A stretch of 64,000 bases of DNA from Nitrospirota bacterium (GTDB lineage: Bacteria; Nitrospirota; UBA9217), in assembly GCA_963751455.1 (NCBI GenBank), contig CAVVUN010000012.1, positions 288,001-352,000 of the forward strand, written 5' to 3'. Numbering within the stretch: position 1 is the stretch's first letter; each line of letters starts with the position of its first letter. This document shows, one piece after another, positions 16,429 through 34,871 of the stretch. The translations under genes were made by a program, and so were the position numbers. The notes beneath the pieces were generated by a model. The model searched no databases, was not told the DNA's origin, and worked only from the letters and a program-made list of their open reading frames with translations.

Positions 16429-18564
16429 TCAACCGATTCCTGGAATCCGCAAGGCTCGGTAAACCCAGAGCGCTTCATGAACGAGTACGGCGCTTAACGT
16501 ATGTGAATCAGGTTTCACATCCTTTGGAACGGTGAAAGAGTACTCCATCAATTGATCCTTGCACGGACCGATTTGTTTAAAAACAATGCGATGACTTACT
16601 TTTTCAGTTAGGCGAATCGCAACAACCGGTGAGCTTTTTGTGGACCAGACAGTATCGTTACAATCATTCACTCGCAGACAAACAACTACTTTTGCCCCTG
16701 CTCGGAGTTCGGATGGCCCCTCAAGCGATAGACGATACGCATTTTCAACCCAAAATTCGATCGGTCCGCAGACCTCGCACTCTCGCTGGATAAGGAGATT
16801 GCCGAGAGACAAGAGATGAGTAGCGGTTTCCCTAACAGTATGACCTGGCAAACATTGTGCCTCTGCCAGACAGGAATGTGAATGTAAGCCGGCATCAGCG
16901 ATAGATCGCCATAAAGCACCCCGACCTTCCCCAATAAACAGCATTTCGCAAAACAGAGTAGCCGCCAGTTCGTCCCACTGCCGAAATCCGAACTGAAGCG
17001 GATTGAGAAGTCGGCCGAGCTCGGGGTGCCACAAAAGCGAACGTTGGCAGCTTCGCACTAAATTCAGTCCTGCTTGCGCTGTTTCACTTATTTCACGGCT
17101 GATCTCTGCCATTCCGGCAAGTAACTCCTGACCGCTATTCGAGCCACTCAATTCCTTAGCGTAATGACGACGAACTGCTCGCTCCACTATGTTTGCATAT
17201 CCCGTTCGATCCAAATAGTGTAGCAACATGCTTGCTAATTTCTCCAACTCGTGACCACAGTTTCTTAGTTTAATTTCTCCGGGCTCGGCACTCTCCGTTA
17301 TAATAACGGCGCCGGTCGAGCCTCCTTGAATTACCGTTTGATCTTTAAGGCCTATTGTAGCAGCTAGGGGAGTTCCGGCTAGTTCAGATGGAAGAGCGAA
17401 TAGCTTAACCTTGGTCGATTGTGAATGCCACTTAGCTTCTTTATTGCCTAAGAGTTGTATTGATGGAGCAGGTCCGCAAGCATCGCCGAAAAGGACGTAT
17501 GGTCTTCTGCCTGTTGCACTCTCCTGAAAATCGTTCAGAAGGCATGCTATCTGTCCAAGTCCGACATTGTCCATTGAAAGAGAGTGACCAAGGGTAAGAT
17601 AATATTCGCTCAGTTCTGAGTTGCACCTGGTGGCAAGAAACGCTGCGGGAAAACCTTCGGCTATTGCAATTACGCTGTTTAGATCCGATGGGTAGAGTTC
17701 TCCGCCGAGCGCAAATCCACCGCATGAATGCAGCAGCAGGTTTCGGGCACTTAAATCCCCGAAGCCAATCGAAGTACGCGTACCAGCCGGTGCGCGCTTG
17801 CATTTACGAGTACCCAAGCCACTACAACCGTTAATAGGCCGATTATCAAGTAATCTTTCCGAGCTTATGCCGGCCCCGCAGAGGACAAGATTGCCTAGCT
17901 TAGCATGCCCGAATGTGCCGTGCGCGAAGACACTTAAGACATTCCAACTAGATTCCCGAATCCAGCGTCGAGCCTCATCCTCCATCCAGAGTATTTCATT
18001 GCAGCCGCTGGAAGTCCATCGTGACATTTTTTCTCGATCGAAATCTATCTCAGCTGAGTCAGGCCAATGAGCGTATTTAGCCAAATAGATCTTGGCCAAT
18101 GAAAAACTTAGACCCTCACTGTCAATTGCAGTAATTATACTCCAGGGACGCCGAAAGTGGACTGCCAATTGTTCAACTTGTGCAAAAGGGAAGTCATCGC
18201 GTAAACCTACGAGAACTGCTGAATCCCACACCGCAGCTTCAACTGAAAGCCAATTTTGTACTTTGGCAACGGGACGCTCCAACAACTGGGCATAGAACCT
18301 GACGATGCCGCTTAGTGCATCGTTTATGAAAAAAATCGGATTTCTATCATTTGTTCTCTTTCTTGGAGCGTCTATTTCACCCTTTTCCACCTGTTCTGAA
18401 GCAATATACCATTTTAAAATAGACTCCCAACGTGCAGATCGACCATCTTTCGGTCGCAGCACCATGGGTCCTCTCGCCGTGCCCTTCTTGAGCTGCTCTT
18501 CGAACGCAGTATGTCTTTCAGTCCAAGTAACCTTGTTGCTCATAACTTTGTCTTTAGTCATCAC
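16429..18564 (-). CDS. 711-aa protein with probable clan CD (caspase/CHAT/gingipain C25-like) His-Cys peptidase domain
   Basis: Beta-strand-preceded VFAHG and LLLHSC motifs and later YVLFGD; the rest is unrecognised. Confidence 0.5.
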   Translation of the reverse strand: MMTKDKVMSNKVTWTERHTAFEEQLKKGTARGPMVLRPKDGRSARWESILKWYIASEQVEKGEIDAPRKRTNDRNPIFFINDALSGIVRFYAQLLERPVAKVQNWLSVEAAVWDSAVLVGLRDDFPFAQVEQLAVHFRRPWSIITAIDSEGLSFSLAKIYLAKYAHWPDSAEIDFDREKMSRWTSSGCNEILWMEDEARRWIRESSWNVLSVFAHGTFGHAKLGNLVLCGAGISSERLLDNRPINGCSGLGTRKCKRAPAGTRTSIGFGDLSARNLLLHSCGGFALGGELYPSDLNSVIAIAEGFPAAFLATRCNSELSEYYLTLGHSLSMDNVGLGQIACLLNDFQESATGRRPYVLFGDACGPAPSIQLLGNKEAKWHSQSTKVKLFALPSELAGTPLAATIGLKDQTVIQGGSTGAVIITESAEPGEIKLRNCGHELEKLASMLLHYLDRTGYANIVERAVRRHYAKELSGSNSGQELLAGMAEISREISETAQAGLNLVRSCQRSLLWHPELGRLLNPLQFGFRQWDELAATLFCEMLFIGEGRGALWRSIADAGLHSHSCLAEAQCLPGHTVRETATHLLSLGNLLIQRECEVCGPIEFWVENAYRLSLEGPSELRAGAKVVVCLRVNDCNDTVWSTKSSPVVAIRLTEKVSHRIVFKQIGPCKDQLMEYSFTVPKDVKPDSHTLSAVLVHEALWVYRALRIPGIG

Positions 18565-19492
18565 CCATCTCTCTATTTTTTACCAGATCGTTCCTTAACT
18601 CCAAAAGGTTTTCAACTTGCTTTTGGTCTTCGCGAGATAAGATAGGGATACGGGTCAGTTTCTCCAACTCTTCCTCTCGATCAAGCAGCCCGAAGCGTAT
18701 CCGCTCGGCTATGTAATCGATCAATATCCGGGGGGCGTGACCGCCGTTCCGCAGCAAAATGTTATAGATACCATAACTGGCCATCAAACAATCAGAATCA
18801 TAGGGTCCGACACCAGGGTCCTCCCAGGGCAGTTCAGCGATTGCACGCTCTATATCCCTCTTTGTAAGAGAATATGCCGCGACTACTCGAATGAAAGTCG
18901 GATCTTTCTGATCTATACAACTCCAGTTCTTGGGAGTATCACCTCCCGTAAAGATGGCTTTGGCGCCATAGCGTTGAGCAACAGTTCTGAAAACTGGAAG
19001 CTTCCACGCAGTCTTGCACGTTTGGCCACAGACTGAACTGCCTTGAATAATCATCTCCCGGAAGGCCTTGTAGGGATAGGAATGGATAAGCAGCCAATCA
19101 ACTTTTAGAAAATCGATAATAGAATTAATATTGGCTCTTGTCTTCACGTTTTTCATGCCTTGGTCCACGGTGAACGCCAGAACTTTGAGCCCTCTCTCAA
19201 CAAGCAGCTTCAGCGCTACCGCACTATCCTTACCGCCTGAAAACGCCAAAATAGCATCGTACTCCGCAGTCTTTGCCTCTTTTAGTGCCTCCTCGAATTC
19301 GCTCATGAGCACTTGAGGATCGATAGGCCTCTCGACGAGAGCAGCACACTGCAAACAGAGAAAGCGTCCCTTCGTTTCAACGAACTTTAATTTATTGTCC
19401 ATTCCCTCCCGGTAGATACAGATTTCACACATTCGACCGCCAGGCAGTGTTGCAGAAATAGTTCCGTTCAGCATTTTTGATTTAGACTCCAT
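18554..19492 (-). CDS. PP-loop (N-type ATP pyrophosphatase) protein, WbpG/WbuX-like amidotransferase architecture
   Basis: N-terminal CxxC...CxxC, AILAFSGGKDS, CxxxC, C-terminal IRFGLLDREE. Confidence 0.75.
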   Translation of the reverse strand: MESKSKMLNGTISATLPGGRMCEICIYREGMDNKLKFVETKGRFLCLQCAALVERPIDPQVLMSEFEEALKEAKTAEYDAILAFSGGKDSAVALKLLVERGLKVLAFTVDQGMKNVKTRANINSIIDFLKVDWLLIHSYPYKAFREMIIQGSSVCGQTCKTAWKLPVFRTVAQRYGAKAIFTGGDTPKNWSCIDQKDPTFIRVVAAYSLTKRDIERAIAELPWEDPGVGPYDSDCLMASYGIYNILLRNGGHAPRILIDYIAERIRFGLLDREEELEKLTRIPILSREDQKQVENLLELRNDLVKNREMGDD

Positions 19493-19520: not shown

Positions 19521-21032
19521 TTAAATGCAGTAGGTTCTTAGTTCATCGAGAGCACGACGAGCTTCAATCCGATCATCGAAAGCGAAACGCCGGCCGCTCA
19601 CGAGCTGATAAGTTTCATGTCCCTTGCCGGCAATTAAAACCACCCCTTTTGATCCGGCCCGCATGATTCCCATCCGAATAGCAGCAGCGCGGTCAGTCTC
19701 AACTTCATACTTAAGATTGAGTTGAGACGTTGCTGATAGGTTTGCTTCACTCACTCCGGATAAAATTTCCTCTATTATTGCCCGGGGATCCTCGCACCTT
19801 GGATTATCAGATGTAATAATTACGTGATCGCTAAGATTACATGCGATTGCACCCATCAACGGTCGCTTACTGCGATCGCAGTCGCCTCCGCACCCAAAGA
19901 CGGTCACTAGTTTGCTATTTCCGGATAATGCCCGCAAGGAACCGCATACGTTTTCAAGTGCATCAGGCGTATGGGCATAATCAATAAAAACTCGCGGACC
20001 ATTGACTCCCTGCACCAGTACTCGTTCGAGCCTGCCTGGCACACCATGAAAAGTCGCTATGGCCTCCGCGGACGAATTTAGATCAACACCGAGAGCAAGT
20101 GTTGCGCTGACAGCTGCCATAATATTGTAAACGTTGTAAATGCCGGTCATAGGCGAGACGATGTGAACACTATTAAACCCTTCCGCATCAAGCTGGAACT
20201 TCAACTGCTCTAACGTCATCCCAAGTTTTGACGCCCTTATTGTGGCCCGCCTCTCAATTCCGTACGTCATGAAACGCGAGCTGACCCGCTCAACTAAATG
20301 CCGGCCCCAGAGATCATCTATGTTAATCACCGCCAAAGCTTTAGTCGGAAGCATTTGGAACAACCGTGCCTTTGCCTCGAAATAGGCATCCATGGTGCCG
20401 TGATAATTCAAGTGATCTCGAGTTAAATTTGTAAAAATACCGATTCCGAAGTGAAGGCCATCCACACGATGCTGGCAAAGTGAGTGGGAGGATACTTCAA
20501 TTGCCGCCGTGTTTTGTCCCGTAACACGCATAGCCTCCAGGCATGCATGAATCTCTATGGCTTCGGGAGTAGTGATGCCGCCGTAGAAGGTTTGATTTCC
20601 GACAACCCAATCAACGCTGCCGATCATGCCGCAGCCACGATTGACATGGTTGAGAATATGCCGAATAAGATAACCCGTTGTAGTTTTGCCATTAGTTCCG
20701 GTAATGCCGACAATATCCATCATTAAACTGGGATGGTTATAATAGGCTGAACAGAGGTGTCCAAGTGCTTGACGTGGATTGTTAGCGATAATATGGGGGA
20801 GTTTTGGAGAAAATCGTTTTTTCGCTAAAATTGCGACAGCTCCGTTCCTCACCGCTTGGGATATGGCTGCTAAATAATTTTTATTGTTTTCGTCAGTCGC
20901 AGTGAAAATGAAACCCGGTTCCACGCTACGGGAGTCCAGAGCTATACCGAGAATATCAACATTTGCCGAATTAGTGATGGTAATGTCTGGATAGGACGCG
21001 CTTAGGCGATTAATGAGCGTGTTGAAATTCAT
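19521..21032 (-). CDS. murE: MurE-like Mur ligase (island-borne paralog)
   Basis: DSRSV, GTNGKTT, NLTRDHL, DYAHTPD, FGCGGD, DNPR, AGKGHE; not in a dcw cluster. Confidence 0.88.
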   Translation of the reverse strand: MNFNTLINRLSASYPDITITNSANVDILGIALDSRSVEPGFIFTATDENNKNYLAAISQAVRNGAVAILAKKRFSPKLPHIIANNPRQALGHLCSAYYNHPSLMMDIVGITGTNGKTTTGYLIRHILNHVNRGCGMIGSVDWVVGNQTFYGGITTPEAIEIHACLEAMRVTGQNTAAIEVSSHSLCQHRVDGLHFGIGIFTNLTRDHLNYHGTMDAYFEAKARLFQMLPTKALAVINIDDLWGRHLVERVSSRFMTYGIERRATIRASKLGMTLEQLKFQLDAEGFNSVHIVSPMTGIYNVYNIMAAVSATLALGVDLNSSAEAIATFHGVPGRLERVLVQGVNGPRVFIDYAHTPDALENVCGSLRALSGNSKLVTVFGCGGDCDRSKRPLMGAIACNLSDHVIITSDNPRCEDPRAIIEEILSGVSEANLSATSQLNLKYEVETDRAAAIRMGIMRAGSKGVVLIAGKGHETYQLVSGRRFAFDDRIEARRALDELRTYCI

Positions 21033-21292: not shown

Positions 21293-21505
21293 CTACCAGT
21301 TCATGATACCGCCACCCCGCACGAAACCTGCACGAGCCAAATCAGCACGAATATTCGCCAGTTTGGCTTTTGCTTCTTGAACTTTCGCCTTAGCTTCATG
21401 GAACTGAGCCAAGGCCTGAAAGTCCTTGGAAACTAAATTTTTGTGCTCCGTTCGGAGGCGGAGCTCCACAATACCACTGGTACTCACTTTCTTCTTTTCT
21501 GCCAT
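21293..21505 (-). CDS. Putative RiPP precursor peptide 2 (70 aa, ends LARAG-FVRGGGIMNW)
   Basis: AAGGAGG RBS; paralog of 21607-21810; located in an RRE/rSAM cluster. Confidence 0.8.
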   Translation of the reverse strand: MAEKKKVSTSGIVELRLRTEHKNLVSKDFQALAQFHEAKAKVQEAKAKLANIRADLARAGFVRGGGIMNW

Positions 21506-21606: not shown

Positions 21607-21810
21607 TTACCAGTTATCCGATACGTCGCCAAGCACTAAACCCGCACGAGCCAAGTCAGCACGAATATGCGCCAATTTGGCTTTTGCTTCTTGAACTTTC
21701 ACTTTAGCTTCATGGAACTGAGCCAAAGCCTGAAAGTCCTTGGAAACTAATTTTCTGTGCTCCGTACGAAGCTCCTCGATACCGCGAATACCTAATTTCT
21801 TTTCAGCCAT
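21607..21810 (-). CDS. Putative RiPP precursor peptide 1 (67 aa, ends LARAG-LVLGDVSDNW)
   Basis: AAGGAGG RBS; shares LVSKDFQALAQFHEAKxKVQEAKAKLAxIRADLARAG with peptide 2. Confidence 0.8.
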   Translation of the reverse strand: MAEKKLGIRGIEELRTEHRKLVSKDFQALAQFHEAKVKVQEAKAKLAHIRADLARAGLVLGDVSDNW

Positions 21811-21869: not shown

Positions 21870-23390
21870 CTATATATGATTACTAAATCGATTTGAATCG
21901 TTCAAAACAAAGTTCTTATGACCAACAGCCGCAGCTGAGGCGCCTGCCATCCTCCCAAAAAAAGCGCCAGATAACAGACCAGTTCCGGCTAAATAGTTAT
22001 GATTGAAAAGGCCTCCCACCATTTCTCCGCAAGCGAAAAGGCCGGAGATAGGTTTCTGATTTGAATCAAGCACCTGAGCCATCTCATTTATTTTTACACC
22101 TCCATAAGTAAAAGTGATACCACCAGTAACGGGATATGCAAAAAAAGGCGGATCCTCAAGCCGGCGCGCCCAATTAGATTTAGGTGGTTGAATACCCGCA
22201 GCCGTCAAACCATCCAATTGGGTCGGGTCGAACTCACCTTGGCGCTGAGCCCCGTTATATTGCTTAAGCACTTCACATGCCCTAGCTTGATTTATTGGCA
22301 ACATCTTAACGAGGGATCCCAAGGAATCAGCGAGGATTGGTTTCCCGGTCTTATAGCGTTTCTCCAGCAGCGGCACGGCATTCGCGTCAAATATCTGGTA
22401 GGCTATGCCATTGGGCTGGCTTAGGATGATTCGACCCATCTTTGCATACGTGAAAAACTGAAAGTCTTCTCCTTCGTCACAAAAGCGCTGGCCGAGGCGA
22501 TTCAGCATCACTCCAAAAGGATAGGAAAGCCGGTTGGACTTATCAGTCAATGAACGGGAGCCGAAAAATGAAGTGCCCGCGTCAATGGGTGTAGAATGAC
22601 AGTGCGTGAAATTACCGTATCGAAGCGCGTTTAAGTCAAAAGCCATGCGCAAACCATCTCCGGTATTATAGGCAGTGCCTCGAACTCTCGCTTGAGCCCA
22701 TTGCCTACCCAAATAGTGCGCACGCCAAGCAGCATTAGACTCAAACCCCCCACAGGCCAGTATAATAGCTTTAGCGGTTAATTGAGAATATCCTTTCGGG
22801 CTCCGGGCAAGAACACCCGTAACCCTCGACCGATTATCCCGGGTTAGCGATACTGCAGCTGTTTGATATAGCACCTCTATTCCTCGTTCAGCAGCAATGT
22901 TGAACCACATTCGTGATAGTCCTACGCCTCCATCGCGTACCTGAACCAAAGCTCCAGGCGACCATCCCACCTTATTTTTGTGGCAAATAGCGCTCAAGGA
23001 TACGGCCAATTCCATAGCTATGCCTTGGTTTACCAACCAGCGGACTGTGTCATAAGAGTGATTGACCAACAGCATGCTCAAATGTAAATCGATTTGACGA
23101 TGAGTAAGGCGCTGTAGATCCTCCCAAAATTGTTGAGCTGTATAAGATGTTATCTCCTCGAAAAAGCCAGGAACTTGACGTTCGGCATCAGGTAACAGTG
23201 GCCGTAGATCGTTTCTCGAATCGAAGGCGAAACGCAATAGCCCTCCGCTGAAGTAAGTATTTCCACCACGAAAATGTTCAGGTGCTTTCTCGAGAACAAT
23301 AACTCGCTTCGCGCCATTTTCGTGGGCGGATACGGCGGCAGCCATAGCGGCGTTCCCAGCGCCAACGATTATTACGTCAAAATCAGACAT
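21870..23390 (-). CDS. FAD-dependent oxidoreductase, TcuA/CobZ-like (succinate dehydrogenase/fumarate reductase flavoprotein superfamily)
   Basis: VIIVGAGNAA, EKAP..RGGNT, LACGGFESN, NTGDG, GITFTYGG, GLFACGE; no tcuB/tcuC nearby. Confidence 0.85.
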   Translation of the reverse strand: MSDFDVIIVGAGNAAMAAAVSAHENGAKRVIVLEKAPEHFRGGNTYFSGGLLRFAFDSRNDLRPLLPDAERQVPGFFEEITSYTAQQFWEDLQRLTHRQIDLHLSMLLVNHSYDTVRWLVNQGIAMELAVSLSAICHKNKVGWSPGALVQVRDGGVGLSRMWFNIAAERGIEVLYQTAAVSLTRDNRSRVTGVLARSPKGYSQLTAKAIILACGGFESNAAWRAHYLGRQWAQARVRGTAYNTGDGLRMAFDLNALRYGNFTHCHSTPIDAGTSFFGSRSLTDKSNRLSYPFGVMLNRLGQRFCDEGEDFQFFTYAKMGRIILSQPNGIAYQIFDANAVPLLEKRYKTGKPILADSLGSLVKMLPINQARACEVLKQYNGAQRQGEFDPTQLDGLTAAGIQPPKSNWARRLEDPPFFAYPVTGGITFTYGGVKINEMAQVLDSNQKPISGLFACGEMVGGLFNHNYLAGTGLLSGAFFGRMAGASAAAVGHKNFVLNDSNRFSNHI

Positions 23391-23469: not shown

Positions 23470-25164
23470 TTAGTCCCGCATCTTTCTAGGTTGAACGGTT
23501 GTATGGCCAGAAAATAACCATATTTCGCGTTCACGGGGCAGATTGTTGACATCAACATTAGCAGGAGTGTCTATAAATTTTTTTACATTTTCCCCTAAAT
23601 GCAAGGCGATCAATGAAGCCATATCCTCTTTCGACGGAACTGGTATCAGGATTTGTGCACCGAGAAGCTTCATCATGTCCATCGTTTTCGCATTGTTAAA
23701 GGCACAGGTATGTGCATCGTCATAGAGGCAGAGTAATACATCTACCGGCATAAGTGCAGAAATCTCATCGTGAGATAATGAACGTGTCAATCCGCCAATA
23801 TAACAAAACCGGAAGCCATCGAACTCGATGACTGCTATCGGAGATTGATAGACTCCTCCCGAAATCAAACTCTCGTCCCGGTTAATTAGCTGTATTGAGC
23901 AAAAGTCATAATTTATGATGTCGACGGCTCTCTTCCTGTTTACGTTAGAAGCGCCCAAGGGTGTTTGTAACTGATGTTTTTTCGACCAAATACCATCTCT
24001 GTCAAGCACTACCACATCTTCTTGCTGTTCAATTAGTCGAGAGCTTTTTCTGCGGGGGTCCAGAATGACCAGGCCTGGCTTCGATGCCGATTGAAGTTCA
24101 ATAAACCCATCACGACATCTAATACTGTACTTGCCGGCTGATCCTGAAACATAAGGCTTACGCGCCGATGAAACTGATAGCGGGCAGTACAAATCCGCCT
24201 CATCAGATCGTAGCCCCCAACCGACTGCACATGCTCTACAGCCTCCGAGACAATTAGAAAGGTGACCGCAGCTAGAGCAGGTATCAGGCACATTGAGAGT
24301 ACGCAATGCATTCATCCGCGCGCCATAAAACACTTCAGTAAGTCGATGAGTGACGAGATTGCCTAATGGCAATTTAATATAACCGCAAGGGACAAGGTTC
24401 CCCAGGGCATCAACGTGCAAATGCTTACTGAAGCAGCCTGGCTGAGTCGAAGGTGTCGTCCCCTGCAAAAACTCAAAACAGGATGAGCCAAAAGTGATCT
24501 GTCTGTATTTTGACATCGCAATGGCGCTCTTCACGACCTCGGCAACCTGCTCCGCCGAGGGACAAAGCTCATGACTTGCACGGCCCGACGGCACTACGGG
24601 GCGGATTTTAAATATCGCAGCGCCTGCATTGTGGGCGGAATCAGCGACCTGCTTCATTTCTGCGATATTGACTCGTGTAAGCGTCATGCGTACGAGGACC
24701 TGGAATCCCATACTTGAAGCCGTCTCAATATTGGCCAGCGTACGTGCAAATGCTCCCGGTGTGTTCCGATGCCAATCATGAGTAGGTCCAAATCCGTCTA
24801 GGCTCACGTGCATCGTAAAAATGCCTGCATCGAGCATACGGTCCAATTCTTCAGAATTCAAATTATAGGCGTTCGTGAAAAGTATTGATGCGATGCCGGC
24901 GTCAATCAGATGCCTTCCAATAGCGCATACAAGATTTAATTCTAAGGTAGGTTCTCCGCCGGTGATGGCCACTTCTTTCGTATCGAGCTGATGAAGATCC
25001 TCAATAAGCTTTGACCTAAAGCGGGAGAAGTTAAAAACAGCACCTTTTTTCGGCGCCGGGCGCGCACAATGCCGGCATTTCATGTTGCACTGGTCGTTTA
25101 TGCGAATGCGGAGACTCTGGAGTCGCGCATATGGAACGGTCGGAAGCATGTTAGGTTTCAACAC
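23470..25164 (-). CDS. Radical SAM/SPASM protein with C-terminal degenerate metallo-beta-lactamase-like domain
   Basis: CNMKCRHC, TGGEP, SLDG; SPASM C..VPC..CSSC...CLGGCRAC..YCP; C-terminal FDGFRFCYIGGL..VDVLL..ILIPV. Confidence 0.85.
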   Translation of the reverse strand: MLKPNMLPTVPYARLQSLRIRINDQCNMKCRHCARPAPKKGAVFNFSRFRSKLIEDLHQLDTKEVAITGGEPTLELNLVCAIGRHLIDAGIASILFTNAYNLNSEELDRMLDAGIFTMHVSLDGFGPTHDWHRNTPGAFARTLANIETASSMGFQVLVRMTLTRVNIAEMKQVADSAHNAGAAIFKIRPVVPSGRASHELCPSAEQVAEVVKSAIAMSKYRQITFGSSCFEFLQGTTPSTQPGCFSKHLHVDALGNLVPCGYIKLPLGNLVTHRLTEVFYGARMNALRTLNVPDTCSSCGHLSNCLGGCRACAVGWGLRSDEADLYCPLSVSSARKPYVSGSAGKYSIRCRDGFIELQSASKPGLVILDPRRKSSRLIEQQEDVVVLDRDGIWSKKHQLQTPLGASNVNRKRAVDIINYDFCSIQLINRDESLISGGVYQSPIAVIEFDGFRFCYIGGLTRSLSHDEISALMPVDVLLCLYDDAHTCAFNNAKTMDMMKLLGAQILIPVPSKEDMASLIALHLGENVKKFIDTPANVDVNNLPREREIWLFSGHTTVQPRKMRD

Positions 25165-25292: not shown

Positions 25293-26333
25293 TCAAAATT
25301 CCAGAGAGTTTGGCTTAATATTCTGACAAGATGGTACGCTTACCGTGAGGTCATTGAAAAAATTGAAACCCAGCGCCCTGCATGCCGAACAAAAATATTG
25401 ATCGTCACAATTTCCACATTTTCCTTGATATTTTCCAGGCGTTTGTTTTCGTAGAAGTGCCAAAAGTTCAGATGACCAAATTTTTTTCAAATCGTCATTA
25501 ACAAGATTTCCCAAGGCGGATGCCAAAACAGGTTTAAAATGCTCGCAAGGTCGAACTGTGCCATCAGGGGATATTGATAATTTGAACCTACCCGCAGAAC
25601 AAAGCTTCAGATGATCATTTTCCGGACTGCGACTGCAACTGCTGTATCGTAATGGTAACTTGCTAACTGTTGTCTTCGCGCGTTGCCACAAAGCGAATGC
25701 CGCCGACTCATCTTGTGCAAATATATGCTGTCCAAATTTAAACGGTACATAATATTGCATGATAACTCCGCGCAGTCGGTCTGGCAAAGCAGATATAAAC
25801 TCGGCTGGTTCAGGGCATCCTGCTAAAAGTGACCAGACAACCATCACATTAAGACCAGCATCCATTGCATGTATCATAGCCGAGCAAGTCTCATCGAAGC
25901 TGCCTGCCCGCGTTTGCTTGTCGTGGTAAACGCGGTTGCCAAATAATTCAAATATAATATTTCCAACGCCGGTTTTTCCCAATTTAAACCAAAAATCCGC
26001 TTCAGGCATTGGGCCACCTGTAATAAGGTCGCAATCGAGGTCATCTTTAGTTGACTCCTCCAGTATCTCTGGGAGCCACGGGAAAGCATTACAGCCCGGT
26101 GCGATAAATAACACATGCCGAATATTGTGCTCCGACAGAACCAGTAAAACCTTTCGTATGATTCTTTGCTGTTCTTTTGGCTCATAACCTTGGAAAAAGT
26201 AGGGGCAATGTTTGCATTCAAACGCACATTTCCAAGCGAGCTGGATATGGGCCTCAATTGCAACGCTCGGTAGTATGGATAAAAAATCTTTAATCCTCTG
26301 ATCGACTTGTTGATTCATTTTATCAACCAGCAA
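25293..26333 (-). CDS. Radical SAM/SPASM protein (divergent core)
   Basis: CAFECKHC; no clear GGEP; SPASM CSAG..VRPC..CGNC...CSACRA..SC. Confidence 0.8.
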   Translation of the reverse strand: MLVDKMNQQVDQRIKDFLSILPSVAIEAHIQLAWKCAFECKHCPYFFQGYEPKEQQRIIRKVLLVLSEHNIRHVLFIAPGCNAFPWLPEILEESTKDDLDCDLITGGPMPEADFWFKLGKTGVGNIIFELFGNRVYHDKQTRAGSFDETCSAMIHAMDAGLNVMVVWSLLAGCPEPAEFISALPDRLRGVIMQYYVPFKFGQHIFAQDESAAFALWQRAKTTVSKLPLRYSSCSRSPENDHLKLCSAGRFKLSISPDGTVRPCEHFKPVLASALGNLVNDDLKKIWSSELLALLRKQTPGKYQGKCGNCDDQYFCSACRALGFNFFNDLTVSVPSCQNIKPNSLEF

Positions 26334-27427
26334 TAAGGGTCGGGCGCGTATAAATCTCCTGAACTAATGTAAGCCATGGCACGACATCCGCCACCGCATT
26401 GCATAAAGCTGCTGCAATTGCAGCAACGTGGATCGATTCCATCTCTAGCCCTCAGAGCATCCATAACTGGATGCCGCGACAAGATATCATCTATATGGTT
26501 AGATGCCAGTGTACCCAGCGTCAAGGGGAAAACCGGGCATGGATAAGCATGTCCTTGAGCTGTATAATGCAACATATAACCTGCTCCGCACTGAGCTCGT
26601 TCGTCGATGGATCTTTCTGCGAAAAGAGCTGCACAGTGTGGCAGCTCCAAGTGAATACCTATATGAAAAGTAGAAATCTTTTTGATATCTAAAATAAAAC
26701 GCTTTAATGATTCTCCGGACAAAATAGGACCAGACAGGCCGGCTTGTCTGCCCAGAGGCATAAGTGGGAATAGGATTAAGGTGTTGACACCCAGTTCATC
26801 TAGCATGTGAATCATTTGCTGGATATCACTTTGATTATGGCGAGAAACGGCTGTTTGAACAGCCACTCTGACGCCTTTTCTAACAAGGCGCTCGATCGCA
26901 GACCAGGCTTTAATGAACGTGCCCGGGCCTCTCACAGCCTCATGAGCCTTGGATAGCCCGTCCAACGAGACCTTAATACCATAAATATTCATAGAAATGA
27001 GTTGCTCGATTCGTTCATCTGAAAGGAGAATTCCATTGGTTGTTAAACCCCAGAACATTTGCTTACGAGTTGCATAAGTGCCGAACGACTTGACTATATT
27101 CCACTCAAGTAGCGGCTCTCCACCGGTCAAGTCGAGAATAGGTGTGCGTTCACCCATCTGGTTAAAAAGTTCTGCTACCATCAATTCTGACCAAGAGGAA
27201 GTCGAACTCGCAGAGCTGTCGACGGCGCAATGGGTACACGAAAGATTGCATCGTGCAGTTATTTGAACGCTAATGGAAGTAAGGGGCGCTGATTCGAATG
27301 CCATTGTCGGAGAACTCCTGTAATGCTGCGATGAATTTGGGGGATAACCAACTATTGGGTATCCCCCATGTGGTAATGCAGCTAGCGTTTTAGAGACAAT
27401 GGGCAATGTTGACCATACAACCCGCAA
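26315..27427 (-). CDS. Radical SAM/SPASM protein
   Basis: CNLSCTHC, TGGEPL, TTNG, VSLDG; SPASM CGAG..YPC..CCNC...CGGGCRA..DPYC; true start may be downstream (MAFESAP). Confidence 0.88.
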   Translation of the reverse strand: MRVVWSTLPIVSKTLAALPHGGYPIVGYPPNSSQHYRSSPTMAFESAPLTSISVQITARCNLSCTHCAVDSSASSTSSWSELMVAELFNQMGERTPILDLTGGEPLLEWNIVKSFGTYATRKQMFWGLTTNGILLSDERIEQLISMNIYGIKVSLDGLSKAHEAVRGPGTFIKAWSAIERLVRKGVRVAVQTAVSRHNQSDIQQMIHMLDELGVNTLILFPLMPLGRQAGLSGPILSGESLKRFILDIKKISTFHIGIHLELPHCAALFAERSIDERAQCGAGYMLHYTAQGHAYPCPVFPLTLGTLASNHIDDILSRHPVMDALRARDGIDPRCCNCSSFMQCGGGCRAMAYISSGDLYAPDPYCWLIK

Positions 27428-27494: not shown

Positions 27495-28319
27495 CTAAAG
27501 AGGCCCTGGGCATAATTTATCCCTGCCTGTGCGTCTTCTGCGGGCTCGGCATCCCCCGCCACAATCCTTAATAGCACACTTTAAACATTCATCGGGAACC
27601 CGAGACCAGGTGAGAAGCCTCTCATCATTCCAAATTTCGCTCAAGCTTTTGTTGTCTAAGGAGCCCAGGCAAAGGCGTGAGCGTCGACATGGACGAACTT
27701 CAGCCTGCTCCGAAACAAACAGGGCAAATCGACCAGCTGGGCATTTACTTCCGACATTTACAAAATCAGGGAAAAAACGCTGCATTAATACCAGATCTGA
27801 TATGACAGGTATCGAGCAATTGTCGGAAAATTCAGATACTGCATAAAGAAATTGTCGGTAAGTATCAACCGAAGCGTGTGGAAGCTCCTCGATGTTCACG
27901 GCTGCCACAGATCTTGCTGACAGCCATTCGATCCAAACCTCTTGATTCGCCTTAGGAGGCAAGTAACCAACAATGACAATACTAAAGCCAAAATCCAGGA
28001 GCATGGCGATTTTTTCCTTGAGACTTTTATCGGGCGAAAGACTTGTATCAACGCTGACTCGCAATGTACATGGAGCAAGCCGGCGCCAGGATGGACGAGG
28101 TTGCAAATCCTCGTATGCGAGGGTCAACACAAGTTCATAACCATGTATTACACTTAAATCCAAAGCCGTTTCAATTGGACCCTTGCATACCATGTTAATA
28201 ATGGAAATTCCTCCAGCAAGTATCATTGACAAGCGTTCGGTCCACAGCGTGTGGTCGGGCTGCAAAGGCAAATCTACCTCGGCAATCATAGGCGCTATCA
28301 GGCGTTCGCTTTCGGACAT
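27495..28319 (-). CDS. SPASM-domain protein lacking the radical SAM CxxxCxxC motif
   Basis: C-terminal CPAG..VRPC..CLKC...CGGGCRA..DKLC; only isolated Cys in N-terminal 170 aa. Confidence 0.75.
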   Translation of the reverse strand: MSESERLIAPMIAEVDLPLQPDHTLWTERLSMILAGGISIINMVCKGPIETALDLSVIHGYELVLTLAYEDLQPRPSWRRLAPCTLRVSVDTSLSPDKSLKEKIAMLLDFGFSIVIVGYLPPKANQEVWIEWLSARSVAAVNIEELPHASVDTYRQFLYAVSEFSDNCSIPVISDLVLMQRFFPDFVNVGSKCPAGRFALFVSEQAEVRPCRRSRLCLGSLDNKSLSEIWNDERLLTWSRVPDECLKCAIKDCGGGCRARRRRTGRDKLCPGPL

Positions 28320-29269
28320 AAAGGATCGTTACCCCAAATTTCCTTTGTGGCGCTGTAGGCTGCTGCTCGGCAACCTCTGCATATCGTGCAAAAATCGCAA
28401 GTATAGCACTTGGCTTCAGATGGAACGGTGCGCAGCGATGCCATTAATTCAGAAGTTTGCCATGCGGCGGTAAATCCTACATCGAAAACATTACGATCAG
28501 AAATACGCAGTTTCGCACAGGGTAGCATAGAGCCATCACTGGAGATTACAACCGCCCATCTGCCGGCGGAACAGCCACTCCAGATATCGTTGGGAATATC
28601 TTTGATATATTTTTTTGGAGTTAATAAATTAAGCAAAGGTTCTTCACAAGATAAATTCTCATGCGATTGCATCCATCCCGAGATCGTCTTCAAGACATGA
28701 TCATACTCGACTACTCCGAGAGAAAAATCATAATCAAGCTTGCCGGGTAAGGCGCAAATTCTCTGGAAACCTGCAGGAACTCCAAGACGAACGAACAGAT
28801 TTAAGAATTTGTCTATTTTAGCGATATTTCGCGACGAAAGTGTCACGAGAAAAGTAATTGGAAGGCCTGCATCTCGCAAGCGCAAGACTTGTTCACACAC
28901 TGCTTGCGCCCTTTCATCCTCTGTTGGAAGAGCATGAAGACTGAGTTGAATAAAAGAAATTTTGTTGTGAAGACGGCTAAAGAAATTTTCAGGAATTCGG
29001 AGTCCATTTGTCAAAAGACCTGGTCGCCAGCCAAACTGATTAGCTTTCCCGACCAGTTCCTCAATATGCGGATATTGCAAACACTCGCCCCCTGTAAAAA
29101 CGATTCGCTCTACTCCCGCCTTTTTAGCCTCAGCCAGAAGTTGAGTGCCTTCAAACAGCGGCATATCTGTAATATGGCGTTCAGAGCCTAAATAACAAAA
29201 GGGGCAATCCAAGTCACATCGTGTAGTTACCTCCAGCTCGAGTAAACTTGGCGCTTGCAAATTCAGCAT
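28298..29269 (-). CDS. Radical SAM/SPASM protein
   Basis: CDLDCPFC, TGGEC, LTNG; SPASM CSAG..LPC..CYTC...CRGCRA..DPLC. Confidence 0.88.
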   Translation of the reverse strand: MLNLQAPSLLELEVTTRCDLDCPFCYLGSERHITDMPLFEGTQLLAEAKKAGVERIVFTGGECLQYPHIEELVGKANQFGWRPGLLTNGLRIPENFFSRLHNKISFIQLSLHALPTEDERAQAVCEQVLRLRDAGLPITFLVTLSSRNIAKIDKFLNLFVRLGVPAGFQRICALPGKLDYDFSLGVVEYDHVLKTISGWMQSHENLSCEEPLLNLLTPKKYIKDIPNDIWSGCSAGRWAVVISSDGSMLPCAKLRISDRNVFDVGFTAAWQTSELMASLRTVPSEAKCYTCDFCTICRGCRAAAYSATKEIWGNDPLCPKANA

Positions 29270-29270
29270 T

Positions 29271-29594
29271 TTACAATCCCTTTTCGATCCGGATTAGTTT
29301 GTTATCATTCATTTCCTGGAGAAAACCAGATAACTCTTCTATTAACTCCTTTCTTTCTGGAATTTCAACGTTACCGATTTTTTCTAAATTATAAGTAATA
29401 TCGTCGCAAATTTTGCCGAACGTTGTCGGTTTATCCAATAGACGCCATACCATTGCTTCGAACTCGCCAAATTCGTAGAAGCCGTGAAAATCCGGTCGTT
29501 CTCCTTTGTATCTTGGGAAAACCAGTATCCTCCCATCCTCAGTATCTCGCCACTGATGGCTCTCTAGTCTATACACTAACGTTGAGTCATCCAT
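29271..29594 (-). CDS. PqqD-family stand-alone RiPP recognition element (RRE)
   Basis: 107 aa; three strands then helices with MVWRLLDKPTTFGKICDDI...Y...ELSGFLQEMNDNKLI pattern; directly upstream of rSAM genes; AGGAGG RBS. Confidence 0.8.
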   Translation of the reverse strand: MDDSTLVYRLESHQWRDTEDGRILVFPRYKGERPDFHGFYEFGEFEAMVWRLLDKPTTFGKICDDITYNLEKIGNVEIPERKELIEELSGFLQEMNDNKLIRIEKGL

Positions 29595-29671: not shown

Positions 29672-32317
29672 TTACTTACTAAATATAATATTCGAAACAT
29701 CGATAACATCTTCCTTCAACGCAGTGTTAGATAGCAGCTCCCATGATGTGCTCCTTATGGCTGCCTTCAAATCACTCGCAATTGGCTCTATAATGTTTAT
29801 TATATTTGGGTTGGCATGGATGACTATACTCTCAATGCTTCGCCAACTTGGGAGCTGATGAGCCGCCTTCGCCTTATTGACCGCAGAATACACGGCCTGA
29901 GCTACATCAAAACTACTGTTCTTGTCAGGCGGAGAAATCCCCTTGAAATCCGTGTCGTTGGGCCAAGGTGCAATTGAAATACTCTTAATTCCAGTTTCCC
30001 CTGCAAATTCCCAAGACCAAACTTCCTCGCAGATATAGGGAATAAACGGTGCAAACATCTTGATTAATGTTTTAAGACCGAGACGCTGAGCGGCTATAGA
30101 CGACCCTTGATCTTCTGATTTAATACCATCTCCGCCCCATGTTCTCTTTTTGCTTAACTCAAGATAACTATCTGTGAAAGAATGCCAGAAGAAACTTTCA
30201 AGGGTGGAAAGGGCACTGCAGAAATTATATTCGTTTAATTGTTCAGTTACCGTTCGTACAGCTTTTCTGAGATGATCAATGAATGCCCGGTCTAATTCAC
30301 AAGATATGCTGTTTCCAGGTCCCTTTTGTGAAAGCACGAATTTTGAGGCATTATATATTTTTACAACAAGTCGGTTGCCTATTTTTACGATATTCTCATC
30401 ATATGCAGTATCAACTCCAAGTCGCGCATTCCCTGCCCAATAACGGAGGGCATCGGAGGAATACTTTTCAAGAAGATCGGTCGGCACAATAACATTACCT
30501 TTACTCTTGGACATTTTTTTTCTGTCTGGATCAAGAACCCATCCTGAAATGTTAATATTTTTCCAAGGTATTATATTTTCATGCAGCAGAGATTTCACTA
30601 TTGTGTAAAAAGCCCACGTTCTTATAATTTCATGACTTTGTGGCCGCAAATCCATAGGAAATAACTTACTGTGCCGATCTTCGTCTACTAACCATCGAGA
30701 TGCGATTTGAGGAGTCAATGAACTCGTGAACCAGGTATCAAAAACATCGGCTTCTGCAACAAACCCATTTGCTATTCCTCTCTGCCCTTCAGAATAGCCA
30801 GAGGGACAGGTTACTGCCGGGTCAACTGGAAGTTGATCTTCAGCGGCAATTATTGGCTTTGCGTAGTCTGGAATTCCATTATTATCGATAGGATACCATA
30901 CCGGGAAAGGGACGCCGAAATATCTTTGACGGCTGATGCACCAGTCCATATTTAAATTTTGGGTCCAATCCCTATATCTATTAAGCATAAAACTCGGATA
31001 CCAGTTGATTTCCTCCCCCTTTTCCAAAAGTTGTGCTTTCTTATCAAGTAGACGTACGAACCATTGACGTGTTGTTATGTATTCAAGAGGATGATCCCCT
31101 TTCTCGTAGTACCTGACAAAGTGTTTTAATGATCTCTTCGCGATTAAGGGGGGGGCATTTCCGACTGCAGCGCCATTTGGCCGTCTTAACATTTCAGCAA
31201 TTATTTCTCGAGCTTTCCGCACTGGCTTGCCGGCAAGTTCTGAATAAAAAGTATTTGCTAAACTCGGATTTTGACTATGCCAACCCTCATGGCCAAAGCT
31301 GATGTTTGCGAATCTCCCATCTCCTGAAATAATCTGCCTTAAAGGCAGATTTTCTTCACGCCACCATTGAACATCGTTTTGATCTCCGAATGTACAGACC
31401 ATAAGGATGCCGGTGCCTTTTTCAGGATTCACCATTTTACTAGGAAAGCATCGAACTTCTGAAAAAAATAAGGGAGTAATGGCTTTTTCCCCGACTAGGT
31501 GCTTATACCTTGGGTCGTCCGGATGAAATGTAACTCCAACGCAGGCCGGTAGAAGCTCGGGGCGGGTAGTCGATATGGTGAAACCAGCATCTGATTCGGC
31601 TAGACCAAAACGAATATCGTGAAAAACGCCTTCAACTTCTCGATCTTCAACTTCTGCTTGAGCAATTGCAGTTTGAAAGTCAATATCCCACATGGTGGGC
31701 CCTTCCGAACTATACAGGTGGCCCTTTCTCAGTAGGTCCAAAAAACTTACTTGCGCAATAGTTCTACAAAGCTTATCAATGGTTGAGTATTCCTGATGCC
31801 AATCCACAGACAATCCGATTCTTTGCCACAAACTTTTGAATACTTCTTCATCTTCTTTTGTCAGTTTAACGCAAAGATCTAAAAAATTAGATCGTGATAT
31901 AATCTGCGGTTTTTTCTTCCTATCTTCCGAGTCCGCCTGTTTTATGTTCAAATGCTCTTTATACGGCTCATTAGGATCGCATCGGACATGAAAATAATTT
32001 TGAACCCTTCTCTCTGTTGGAAGGCCATTGTCGTCCCATCCCATTGGATAAAATATATTTTTCCCGACCATTCTTTGATATCGAACGATGATATCAGTAT
32101 GCGTGTAGCTAAATATATGACCGATATGAAGAGAACCTGAAACTGTTGGTGGCGGTGTATCGATTGCAAATGTTTCGGCACGTTTTTTCGAGGAATCGTA
32201 TTTGAATATACCAAGCTCATCCCATAGCGCTTGATATTTTTTTTCAGCTGCTCTTGAATCGAAATGTTTTGGTAAGGTACTCGCATCAAATGAATTTCTA
32301 TCGTTTTTAATTATCAT
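29672..32317 (-). CDS. valS: Valyl-tRNA synthetase, type 2 (archaeal/actinobacterial-like), island-borne
   Basis: DTPPPTVSGSLHIGH, GWDDNGLPTER, WCISRQRYFG, DTWFTSS, RPQSHEIIRTW, KMSKS; no long C-terminal coiled coil. Confidence 0.93.
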   Translation of the reverse strand: MIIKNDRNSFDASTLPKHFDSRAAEKKYQALWDELGIFKYDSSKKRAETFAIDTPPPTVSGSLHIGHIFSYTHTDIIVRYQRMVGKNIFYPMGWDDNGLPTERRVQNYFHVRCDPNEPYKEHLNIKQADSEDRKKKPQIISRSNFLDLCVKLTKEDEEVFKSLWQRIGLSVDWHQEYSTIDKLCRTIAQVSFLDLLRKGHLYSSEGPTMWDIDFQTAIAQAEVEDREVEGVFHDIRFGLAESDAGFTISTTRPELLPACVGVTFHPDDPRYKHLVGEKAITPLFFSEVRCFPSKMVNPEKGTGILMVCTFGDQNDVQWWREENLPLRQIISGDGRFANISFGHEGWHSQNPSLANTFYSELAGKPVRKAREIIAEMLRRPNGAAVGNAPPLIAKRSLKHFVRYYEKGDHPLEYITTRQWFVRLLDKKAQLLEKGEEINWYPSFMLNRYRDWTQNLNMDWCISRQRYFGVPFPVWYPIDNNGIPDYAKPIIAAEDQLPVDPAVTCPSGYSEGQRGIANGFVAEADVFDTWFTSSLTPQIASRWLVDEDRHSKLFPMDLRPQSHEIIRTWAFYTIVKSLLHENIIPWKNINISGWVLDPDRKKMSKSKGNVIVPTDLLEKYSSDALRYWAGNARLGVDTAYDENIVKIGNRLVVKIYNASKFVLSQKGPGNSISCELDRAFIDHLRKAVRTVTEQLNEYNFCSALSTLESFFWHSFTDSYLELSKKRTWGGDGIKSEDQGSSIAAQRLGLKTLIKMFAPFIPYICEEVWSWEFAGETGIKSISIAPWPNDTDFKGISPPDKNSSFDVAQAVYSAVNKAKAAHQLPSWRSIESIVIHANPNIINIIEPIASDLKAAIRSTSWELLSNTALKEDVIDVSNIIFSK

Positions 32318-32529: not shown

Positions 32530-32559
32530 ATTATAGTGATCTACACACTTGTTTGTCAA
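32530..32559 (-). promoter_or_regulatory. Consensus sigma70 promoter driving the island
   Basis: Minus strand TTGACA (32559-32554) - 18 bp - TATAAT (32535-32530), about 210 bp upstream of valS. Confidence 0.8.
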
Positions 32560-32773: not shown

Positions 32774-32946
32774 CGGAACAGCGAGGCTATAATGAAACTG
32801 TTATACATCGCAATGTAAATCTCAAAGAAATGGACCATGCCGATCCATGACTGAAGTCGGCGCTGAGCGGTTTTACGATCTTATTTTAAGAAAGAACGCC
32901 TGCGCTTTAAATCGAGTGGACATTTACACAAACTATTTACATGGCC
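32774..32946 (+). mobile_element. Degraded IS256-family transposase 3' end and terminal inverted repeat
   Basis: Broken frames read NSEAIMKLLYIAM*/ISKKWTMPIHD/KSALSGFTILF*ER, matching the IS256 C-terminal KLLYLA..ISKKWTMPI.DWK.AL..F.I.F.ER pattern; followed by tttacacaaactatttacatggcc. Confidence 0.8.
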
Positions 32947-32951
32947 GACTG

Positions 32952-34871
32952 TTATAACTTTCTCATTTCGCCGCCGAACATTTCCACAACCTTATTTACC
33001 AAAGCCGTCAGCGAGGGGTCGCGCGCTCCCATGATAAGCACGCAGTCTTCCGGTTTCGCATCGAGTTTTAATGTTTTCAATAACTCGTCTCGGCTGTTGA
33101 GGGCTTGCGCATTGAATGGCGCGGGACCAAGGCCGTTTATGATATCTTCCGAGGAAATATTTTTTTGCGCCGTGCCTCCCGCATAATAGATCGGGAGGAG
33201 ATAGAGTGAATCATTTGGCCGGAACGCGGCTCGAAAAGTTTCGATGTATTCGTCTTTCAAAAACCGTGTAGGGCCGAAGCCATGCGGCTGATATACGGCC
33301 AGGATGCGTCCGGAAAGGCCTCGGGCTGCCCGAACAACAGCCGCTATTTTTGCCGGATTATGGGCAAAGTCATCAACCACATGCACGTTCGCTTTTGTTG
33401 CGGTGACGGAAAATCGCCGGGCCACACCCTCATAATTTTTTACCGCATGCGCAAGGGCAGACGGCTCGCAAGCGAAATACTCGCATACGCAGAGCGCAGC
33501 GCACAGGTTTTCAAGATTGTGCTCTCCGGGAAGCGGCAGATGATACTCAGTGCCGCTCCTGAATAATTTGACCGAAGTCGGGAGGAGTTGCTCCCGGTCC
33601 GGCCGCCACGAACCCGAGCCGTTTCGGCCGAAGCGCACGGTTGCAGGAAGCGAAGCAAGGACCGGATCGTCGGCGTTGGAGGCCGTCCAGGAAGATTGCG
33701 AAGCCAGCGTTTTGAAGAGTTTCGCAATGTCCTCAATGCTTTTGTGGTCCTTGGAAACATTCAGGATGACCGATGCTTCCGGACGATATTTGACCACGGT
33801 TCCATCGCTTTCGTCCGCCTCCACTACCAGGAGCTCGGACCCGCCGCTGTATGCATTGCCGATAAGGCCCTGTTTTTCGAGCCTGCGCAGGCCCGCGCCG
33901 CTGATCAACGATGGCGACTTTCCGCATGCGGTCAGGAATTCGAATATCATAGCAGTAACCGTCGACTTGCCGCTTGTGCCGGCGACTGCAATGGTCTTTT
34001 TTAGTCCGATGAGAGCGCTCAGCAGATCAGAGCGATGGACGATGGGAATGCCGCGGCTGCGGGCGGCTACAATATCCGGATTCGATTCTTCTATGGCGGT
34101 TGAAACGCAAATGACATGGGTATCCGCACTCACACCGGAACCGTCCTGCTGAACGATGGAGCACCCGAGGCTTTCAAGCGATTGCCGGATCGGGGCGGTA
34201 TCCTCGCTTGCATGGAAACGATCGGAACCCGAGACCGTGATTCCCTGAAAGCGCAGGTATTGCGCGAGAGCGCTCATGCCGCTGCCGAAAACTCCGGTAA
34301 AATGAACGTTGCGGCATGGATGGCCGTTGATGACAATCGCGGGAGGATCGATATAGACCAGCGTACCTTCTCCGACGGTTTCAAACAGCCGGGTAATATC
34401 GAGATTGCGCATGCAGACGCACCCGTACGACAGGGGAGTTCCGATCAGGTCTTCTCTGCCGGTGCCGTGGATATAAATATAACGCTCATAGGAATCCACG
34501 CCCCCGCCCTTATTGATGCCCTCTTCAAGACCTTCGAGCCGCAGAATGCGGGTCAGGATGAGATTATCCCGGGTAAGACGGTGGTCCCAGTCGATGCCGG
34601 TATCCTCGCGGTCCGTGAAAATGCGACCTACGCGCGCGCCGGCTCCGAACTTTTCCCTGATCCGATGAAGACCGAGCGGCGTTTTGAGCGAGTTTTCCCG
34701 ATTGCCGATGCCGAAGCGGGAGGTCGAGGCGTCATATCGCTCGACGATGGTATCGTTCGAGCAGACAAGGAGCGTCTGTGTCTCGATGGATACGATGAGA
34801 AATAGATCGTGCGGGGCCGGTAAAAACTTCCGTATTTTTTCGTGAATACAGCGTAATCGGACTGTTTCCAT
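32952..34871 (-). CDS. Fusion of YkuD (L,D-transpeptidase fold) domain and MurC/Mpl-like Mur ligase
   Basis: N-terminal TPLGLH, RYIYIHGT, SYGCVCM; then GVFGSGMSALA, GTSGKST, VEADESD, DDFAHNP, YQPH; no signal peptide. Confidence 0.88.
   Translation of the reverse strand: METVRLRCIHEKIRKFLPAPHDLFLIVSIETQTLLVCSNDTIVERYDASTSRFGIGNRENSLKTPLGLHRIREKFGAGARVGRIFTDREDTGIDWDHRLTRDNLILTRILRLEGLEEGINKGGGVDSYERYIYIHGTGREDLIGTPLSYGCVCMRNLDITRLFETVGEGTLVYIDPPAIVINGHPCRNVHFTGVFGSGMSALAQYLRFQGITVSGSDRFHASEDTAPIRQSLESLGCSIVQQDGSGVSADTHVICVSTAIEESNPDIVAARSRGIPIVHRSDLLSALIGLKKTIAVAGTSGKSTVTAMIFEFLTACGKSPSLISGAGLRRLEKQGLIGNAYSGGSELLVVEADESDGTVVKYRPEASVILNVSKDHKSIEDIAKLFKTLASQSSWTASNADDPVLASLPATVRFGRNGSGSWRPDREQLLPTSVKLFRSGTEYHLPLPGEHNLENLCAALCVCEYFACEPSALAHAVKNYEGVARRFSVTATKANVHVVDDFAHNPAKIAAVVRAARGLSGRILAVYQPHGFGPTRFLKDEYIETFRAAFRPNDSLYLLPIYYAGGTAQKNISSEDIINGLGPAPFNAQALNSRDELLKTLKLDAKPEDCVLIMGARDPSLTALVNKVVEMFGGEMRKL

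Follow-up and report, generated by a model that had tools for sequence, protein, structure and literature searches.

A second, type-2 valyl-tRNA synthetase gene at the head of a putative radical SAM peptide cluster in a Nitrospirota genome

The locus described here raises the question of why a bacterium that already encodes one valyl-tRNA synthetase (ValRS) should carry another of a different type, as the first gene of what appears to be a biosynthetic cluster. It lies in a 64,000-nucleotide stretch of a Nitrospirota genome (assembly GCA_963751455.1, contig CAVVUN010000012.1, positions 288,001 to 352,000; hereafter the window, whose own positions are used throughout), and its ValRS gene, valS, sits at one end of a low-GC island. 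The original prediction, made from the sequence alone, saw in this gene either a self-resistance marker or a donor of Val-tRNA for an unknown product. We find an intact, imported second valS placed directly ahead of genes that look like an undescribed peptide-modifying pathway. Its position, the rarity of second ValRS genes and its cluster-like codon usage favour a link between the two, and the reading we lean to, tentatively and at a little under even confidence, is that the island ValRS acts as a backup and shields the cell against whatever the cluster it heads produces.

29672..32317, minus strand: intact type-2 (alt_ValS) valyl-tRNA synthetase, 881 amino acids (aa), the genome's second valS (open reading frame, profile scores, motifs, tree)

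The gene reads as one uninterrupted open reading frame (ORF) of 881 codons on the minus strand, the plus strand being full of stops, and its product is a complete class Ia enzyme with HIGH at 64-67, KMSKS at 601-605 and both an editing and an anticodon domain. It passes the NCBIfam model alt_ValS (NF000540, 1062 bits against a cut-off of 900) and PRK13208 (1012 against 738), and fails the type-1 models TIGR00422 (605 against 612) and NF004349 (478 against 704), which assigns it to the type-2 (archaeal-like) enzymes, in agreement with the original description of an intact ValRS with both signature motifs. The island-like composition ascribed to valS is borne out as well: its GC content is 0.417, its GC content at third codon positions (GC3) of 0.36 falls at the 1.9th percentile among 2015 ORFs of the genome, and its codon usage is nearer to that of the cluster than to that of the genome (mean log-likelihood -1.14 against -1.29). 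Type-1 and type-2 ValRS are about 30% identical, and many pocket positions differ between the island ValRS and type-1 ValRS. Within the motifs, the island ValRS departs from its type-2 relatives by V68I beside HIGH and by T314N in the editing motif, an Asn also found in type-1 ValRS. All catalytic and editing motifs are kept intact despite the presence of a host valS, and the enzyme likely charges tRNA-Val normally.

A separate type-1 valS, as the original prediction had proposed looking for, is present on contig C3 of the genome (167.5-170.1 kb) and is 72-89% identical per segment to that of a family relative. In the assembly this host gene is in pieces, with one frame change near its 5' end, another near codon 720 and a gap of about 80 bases around codon 390; it also carries two radical substitutions at conserved positions. 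Using 190 relative ORFs as queries, 101 conserved orthologues were tested, and six of these, including valS and the neighbouring cheA, are frameshifted in the assembly; the single leuS of the genome is frameshifted too. Of 455 invariant sites, 7 are changed in the host valS, against 3-23 in relatives. With frameshifts occurring elsewhere and no excess of changes at invariant sites, the breaks in the host valS are likelier to be sequencing error, and probably are. Multi-frameshift patches cover contig C3 162000-170200 (cheA, valS) and contig C2 141100-143700 (leuS), which marks the assembly as locally poor, so that a gene of this genome should be called a pseudogene only with backing from reads. 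All 40 close relatives lack an island-type ValRS (best match 34%), and none of the 400 other genomes of the phylum passes alt_ValS; the island gene is therefore an imported second copy, neither the genome's only valS nor a vertical orthologue.

Where did it come from? Nine proteins are 65-71% identical to the island ValRS, with the next falling to 55-59%, and the named close relatives belong to Desulfomonilaceae, Desulfatitalea and Thermodesulfobacteriota. The phylogeny suggested as a check nests the island ValRS within this foreign Desulfomonilaceae/Desulfatitalea clade and not with vertical orthologues, in a tree of 42 sequences (FastTree support 1.0) and again with 21 of those 42 (ultrafast bootstrap, UFBoot, 97). 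Type-2 ValRS is rare in the donor-side phylum as well (4 of 401 genomes). Viral contigs yielded no ValRS. The valS genes of the relatives have a host-like GC content, with GC3 of 0.59-0.81 against 0.36 in the island.

The island occupies 16405-32951 (16.5 kb), at a GC content of 0.457 against 0.526 and 0.541 in its flanks. Its 13 ORFs are co-oriented on the minus strand and valS is the first of them, separated by 77 bp from the next gene, for a PqqD-like protein, with no terminator-like site in between. Ahead of valS stands a strong promoter candidate.

32530..32559, minus strand: perfect sigma-70 consensus, 12/12, with a spacer of 18 nt, some 210 nt ahead of the valS start (promoter scan)

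This is the only 12/12 match among the 40 promoter-like sites found in 15000-34000, where 28 were expected. From this arrangement we infer that valS and the cluster are co-transcribed. The earlier claim that valS leads an operon thus stands as far as gene order and the consensus promoter are concerned; a shared transcript is predicted only, and a weaker internal site, taken up below, could serve the cluster alone. The valS leader has no Rfam match and an unremarkable fold (z 0.34), Rfam has no match anywhere across 14000-36000, no T-box was found in the genome, and there are no tRNA genes in the 64-kb window.

Behind valS follow twelve ORFs, five of which encode radical S-adenosylmethionine (SAM)/SPASM or SPASM-domain proteins.

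29271..29594, minus strand: predicted PqqD-like peptide-recognition protein, 107 aa (ESM Atlas 0.92, 21/30 matches in PqqD clusters)
28298..29269, minus strand: radical SAM/SPASM enzyme, 323 aa, CxxxCxxC intact (profiles)
27495..28319, minus strand: SPASM-domain protein without CxxxCxxC, 274 aa (profiles)
26315..27427, minus strand: radical SAM/SPASM enzyme, 370 aa counted from the first TTG (profiles)
25293..26333, minus strand: divergent radical SAM/SPASM enzyme, 346 aa, CxxxCxxC present (profiles)
23470..25164, minus strand: radical SAM/SPASM enzyme with a C-terminal metallo-beta-lactamase-fold domain, 564 aa (profiles)
21870..23390, minus strand: TcuA-like flavin adenine dinucleotide (FAD) oxidoreductase, 506 aa (above the NF006130 cut-off)
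21607..21810, minus strand: putative precursor peptide 1, 67 aa, with a variable 10-residue tail ending in Asn-Trp (conserved leader)
21293..21505, minus strand: putative precursor peptide 2, 70 aa (78% identity with peptide 1)
19521..21032, minus strand: MurE-family ligase, divergent and the second in the genome, 503 aa (39% identity with host MurE)
18554..19492, minus strand: PP-loop (N-type) ATP pyrophosphatase, weakly WbuX-like, 312 aa (profiles)
16429..18564, minus strand: protein of an unnamed family, 711 aa, putative cysteine peptidase with a C-terminal immunoglobulin (Ig)-like domain (conserved His and Cys)

The leaders of the two putative precursors are near-identical and their 10-residue tails share only Val, Gly, Asn and Trp; with a conserved leader and a variable tail, they resemble precursors of peptides that are made ribosomally and modified after translation (RiPPs). 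Together with a predicted RiPP recognition element (RRE) and maturases, such short precursors give the cluster the features by which radical SAM/SPASM RiPP systems are recognized, and, judged by predicted protein families, it is an undescribed RiPP-like radical SAM peptide pathway. The PqqD-like protein itself has no Pfam or NCBIfam match, none of the radical SAM enzymes reaches an NCBIfam family cut-off, and the GeoRSP models are not passed (TIGR04303, best 101 against 400; TIGR04304, best 24 against 300). No tcuB or tcuC lies beside the gene for the TcuA-like flavoprotein. The family of the 711-aa protein has 237 representatives, in which His215 and Cys281 are conserved; its second ESM Atlas match (0.95) is named 'C25 family cysteine peptidase', a name without Pfam support, and Pfam C25 is absent from 34 members of the family. 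A Foldseek search with the 711-aa model (pLDDT, a per-residue confidence score, 89.6) gave a match limited to the Ig-like tail.

The island MurE keeps the DNPR motif, has Cys in place of the Arg of host and PDB homologues in GGDRD, and is altered in the N-terminal G..DGH. The Arg of GGDRD is a diaminopimelate-binding residue. The island enzyme might have been repurposed to ligate peptides, or it might be a second candidate for resistance. Cyclopropylglycine chemistry of the TvgB/TigE type was considered and rejected, as the GYW motif that marks those radical SAM cyclopropyl synthases (PMC10878394) is absent from 14 of 14 proteins checked.

How, then, might the ValRS serve such a pathway? If it protects the cell, both precursors would be brought by the PqqD-like protein to a set of enzymes comprising the radical SAM proteins, the flavoprotein, the MurE-like ligase and the PP-loop ATPase, with removal of the precursor tail falling to the 711-aa protein. 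What results, whether the whole product or a valine-like piece of it, would then inhibit or mischarge type-1 ValRS, and the insensitivity of the island enzyme would stem from the ancient difference between type-1 and type-2 active sites, as with IleRS2 and mupirocin, and not from new mutations. Since insensitivity would be inherent to the type, an unmodified type-2 enzyme is what would be expected for self-resistance. There are precedents: insensitivity to mupirocin is a property of the IleRS2 type (PMC9437257, PMC5388404), AgnB2 is a documented immunity copy for agrocin 84, MetRS copies are a further precedent and such copies have been proposed for related clusters (PMC8323819), and the AlaRS AcmD has been shown to be an immunity copy for ascamycin (PMC12945691). 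In favour of protection, Val is among the four residues conserved in the otherwise variable precursor tail. No transporter was recognized among the island ORFs with Pfam and NCBIfam, so the product could stay inside the cell.

A number of observations weigh against protection. Beyond position, nothing so far ties the ValRS to the cluster, so that the original notion of a self-resistance marker is upheld in that an acquired second ValRS of the other type heads a RiPP-like cluster, and falls short in that position is the only link. The island also holds a second MurE, which makes the argument from a duplicate gene not specific to ValRS, and the conserved C-terminal Asn-Trp of the precursor tail is not suggestive of a valine mimic. 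The active-site motifs of the island ValRS are those of housekeeping type-2 relatives, so by sequence it is an ordinary charging enzyme without visible specialization; in the comparison of active-site residues that had been proposed, it departs from type-1 at many positions and agrees with those relatives apart from V68I and T314N. Its root-to-tip distance of 0.33 lies within the 0.27-0.33 of the sister group, with no long branch. In 5 of 5 genomes of the nearest relatives the type-2 enzyme is the only ValRS found, and the neighbourhoods read for this nearest clade, at five GTDB and two metagenome loci, contain no island genes in flanks of up to 10 kb. The GC3 of valS (0.361) is lower than that of the other 10 island genes tested (0.439, Fisher p 2e-5) and of the five nearest island genes (0.411, p 0.018), whereas those 10 genes are homogeneous among themselves (p 0.10), which hints at a separate origin of valS. 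The 3' end of valS itself contains a 10/12 promoter-like site (29826-29799) from which the cluster could be transcribed on its own. On plasmids, where seven records with a type-2 valS were found and five read (all but an 11.9-Mb record from Nonomuraea and one from Microbacterium), the gene stands alone in three of the five. Lastly, no homologous cluster was found by searches with the precursors, the PP-loop protein, the 711-aa protein or the radical SAM enzymes.

Those searches returned scattered relatives of single proteins. The precursor peptides have no homologue among 5.8 billion proteins beyond themselves or their paralogue, and for the PP-loop protein a single relative (63%) turned up, encoded on a contig of 1.7 kb that gives no context. 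The profile of the 711-aa protein gave no full-length match in the 400 other genomes of the phylum, two partial matches in unrelated neighbourhoods among the 401 genomes of the donor-side phylum, and nothing confirmed in a metagenome scan. Plasmid relatives of this protein lie in deazapurine/nonribosomal peptide synthetase (NRPS)-type clusters in five of six records read; the family recurs in Streptomyces plasmid clusters with 7-deazaguanine genes (queD/queE/folE/queC) and NRPS genes. It is apparently a promiscuous tailoring protein of undescribed pathways. Loci sharing this family only (five plasmids, two genomes) have no valS nearby, and their pathways differ from that of the island. The plasmid relatives of the radical SAM enzymes (32%) are found, in two of the three records read, in other PqqD cassettes without valS.

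Several of the contrary observations are what one would expect if valS were accessory cargo of a mosaic island, a Desulfomonile/Desulfatitalea-like housekeeping gene with no link to the product, which we regard as a real possibility though a doubtful one. The enzymes nearest to it serve as the sole, housekeeping ValRS of their genomes, in neighbourhoods that vary and are not biosynthetic, it shows no change of rate or active site, its GC3 is unlike that of the cluster genes, the plasmids include three on which the gene travels alone, and the promoter-like site at its 3' end could serve the cluster alone. However, a second ValRS gene is a rarity (none in 400 other genomes of the phylum), which makes a chance landing 77 bp ahead of a biosynthetic operon unlikely; ValRS is among the most stable aminoacyl-tRNA synthetase families (PMC5388404); and the cargo of the island consists of valS and the cluster only, with the codon usage of valS cluster-like.

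Alternatively, the ValRS might be part of the biosynthesis, supplying Val-tRNA or valyl adenylate (Val-AMP), or itself attaching valine to the modified peptide or to a fragment that has been released. Although SbzA, a full-length IleRS homologue, retains HIGH, KMSKS and the canonical architecture, it moves Ile from tRNA to an acceptor (PMC6331615, PMC12945691), and the RiPP-derived product of fosfazinomycin biosynthesis receives Val from Val-tRNA (PMC13622209); the island also recruits other families of primary metabolism (MurE, TcuA). Nevertheless, no dedicated aminoacyl-tRNA-dependent transferase, as in pathways of the VlmL/VlmA, AcmD/AcmF, FzmI or PEARL type, and none of the GNAT/Fem, LanB-like, CDPS or DUF2156 kinds, was recognized among the 12 other island ORFs (Pfam on 10 of them, the two peptides excluded, and NCBIfam on all 12), an unrecognized fold being possible. 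This absence weakens the Val-donor reading, and with it the original suggestion that Val is passed from Val-tRNA onto the peptide, for which the other island proteins include no recognized acceptor enzyme. The ValRS is, moreover, 65-71% identical to housekeeping enzymes with motifs unchanged and a normal rate, and the host, with three tRNA-Val genes, can supply Val-tRNA itself. We therefore consider a biosynthetic role improbable.

That the host type-1 valS is truly broken and the island gene is the essential ValRS, locking the island in the chromosome, is very improbable: the fragmentation and the two radical changes would fit it, as would the displacement of type-1 by type-2 in the donor lineages, but the frameshifts in 6 of 101 conserved orthologues and in the single leuS point to sequencing error, and the count of changed invariant sites lies inside the range of the relatives.

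The two remaining plasmids carry valS in operons. On the Streptomyces plasmid NZ_CP109170.1 (L079:4166-16310), an operon interrupted by an IS701 element encodes TauD, a radical SAM protein, an amidinotransferase-like protein, an unannotated protein, type-2 valS, a hydrolase and a methyltransferase, and it counts in favour of protection here and is an independent candidate for a ValRS-directed compound. On the Variovorax plasmid NZ_LR594668.1 (L076:2551-17258), type-2 valS shares an operon with aminotransferases, an amidohydrolase and a VOC protein, adjoining a branched-chain amino-acid ATP-binding cassette (ABC) transporter; this operon may handle a toxic valine analogue. The hosts of all five plasmids presumably have a chromosomal type-1 valS. 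Valine depletion of the island ValRS (46 residues against 50-60 in its clade) was rejected as evidence, as it amounts to about 1.1 standard deviations after correction for AT bias. Among 39 sequences, the two cluster-linked type-2 ValRSs, the window copy and that of the Streptomyces plasmid (L079:11938-14502), rank first and third lowest in valine content, a weak and post hoc ranking that is partly AT bias for the window copy.

The way the island entered the chromosome can be read from its edges.

32952..34871, minus strand: host gene at the insertion site, an ElsL-like L,D-carboxypeptidase fused to a MurC/Mpl-like ligase, 639 aa (profiles)
15304..16404, minus strand: left copy of the flanking direct repeat, matching the host gene's 3' part (identity 97.7% over 701 bp and 89% over the final 236 bp)
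32830..32848, minus strand: terminator-like hairpin past the host gene, weak, with a 3-nt loop (hairpin scan; such sites are fewer than in shuffles)

The fusion gene, likely a cell-wall recycling enzyme, is conserved in 55 of 63 other genomes of the family. Its 3' 932 bp (32952-33883) form the right copy of the repeat. Mismatches between the copies cluster at both ends, in a crossover-like pattern, and the left copy is interrupted by a 165-bp non-coding element (15540-15703) of which the genome holds 52 near-full copies. This divergence and the insertion in the left copy show that the repeat is not an assembly duplicate. We infer that the island entered by a single crossover of a circle bearing a related copy of the host-gene end, and the flanking 0.93-kb repeat suggests homologous recombination for integration and possibly for excision; no integrase was recognized among the island ORFs with Pfam and NCBIfam. 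The 165-bp element was inserted with a short target duplication and has a further copy at 34925-35090; other repeat families occur near 38412-38600, 51194-51285 and 52890-53220.

Natural inhibitors with resistant copies in their clusters have been described for several synthetases, and we found none for ValRS. Our literature search, which left most subscription journals outside its reach, found no ValRS self-resistance gene in a biosynthetic cluster and no Mur ligase linked to RiPPs, and the available parts of three reviews (PMC8323819, PMC9437257, PMC12945691) do not name ValRS in a self-resistance role (0 occurrences of 'ValRS'). Should the link between valS and the cluster be true, the target of an undiscovered compound would have been named before its isolation, and type-1 against type-2 ValRS would make a simple assay. 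Going further, the island would encode the first natural-product ValRS inhibitor, derived from a ribosomal peptide through the action of four radical SAM enzymes together with a MurE ligase turned to a new use and a peptidase family that has no name, with a spare type-2 valS then a general marker; we think this unlikely. If the anti-ValRS reading is true, spare type-2 valS genes would serve genome mining for an unexplored class of anti-ValRS compounds. Whatever the role of valS, the cluster appears to be a RiPP-like pathway that has not been described before, and its precursors lack any homologue in the databases.

Among known systems, the locus resembles the self-resistance synthetases, namely IleRS2 for mupirocin, the LeuRS AgnB2 for agrocin 84, the SerRS for albomycin and AcmD for ascamycin, in having a full-length, divergent second synthetase within a biosynthetic locus, a housekeeping copy elsewhere, horizontal acquisition and, as with IleRS2, an enzyme of the alternative type. 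It differs from them in that the synthetase is a ValRS, the pathway is a multi-radical-SAM peptide pathway without nucleoside or polyketide genes, and product, target and resistance are putative. With SbzA (SB-203207/8) it shares an in-cluster class Ia synthetase with intact signature motifs, and the fosfazinomycin enzyme FzmI offers a parallel in its Val-tRNA-dependent addition of valine to a RiPP-derived product, although no FzmI-like transferase was recognized in the island. Unlike in those two systems, the island ValRS remains near the housekeeping enzymes with unchanged motifs, and sulfonamide or phosphonate genes are absent. The type-2 ValRSs of Desulfomonilaceae and Desulfatitalea belong to the same clade and have the same motifs, but there the enzyme is the only ValRS found and lies outside clusters, whereas here it is a second copy. 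The remainder of the cluster is closest in layout to GeoRSP, PQQ, mycofactocin and SynChlorMet, with a stand-alone PqqD-like protein, radical SAM/SPASM enzymes and short precursors, and with a SPASM-only protein as in GeoRSP. In contrast to these four, it has four radical SAM enzymes, with scores far below the family cut-offs, and to the common plan of PqqD-dependent RiPP systems it adds a MurE-like ligase, a PP-loop ATPase, a TcuA-like enzyme and an unnamed peptidase-like protein.

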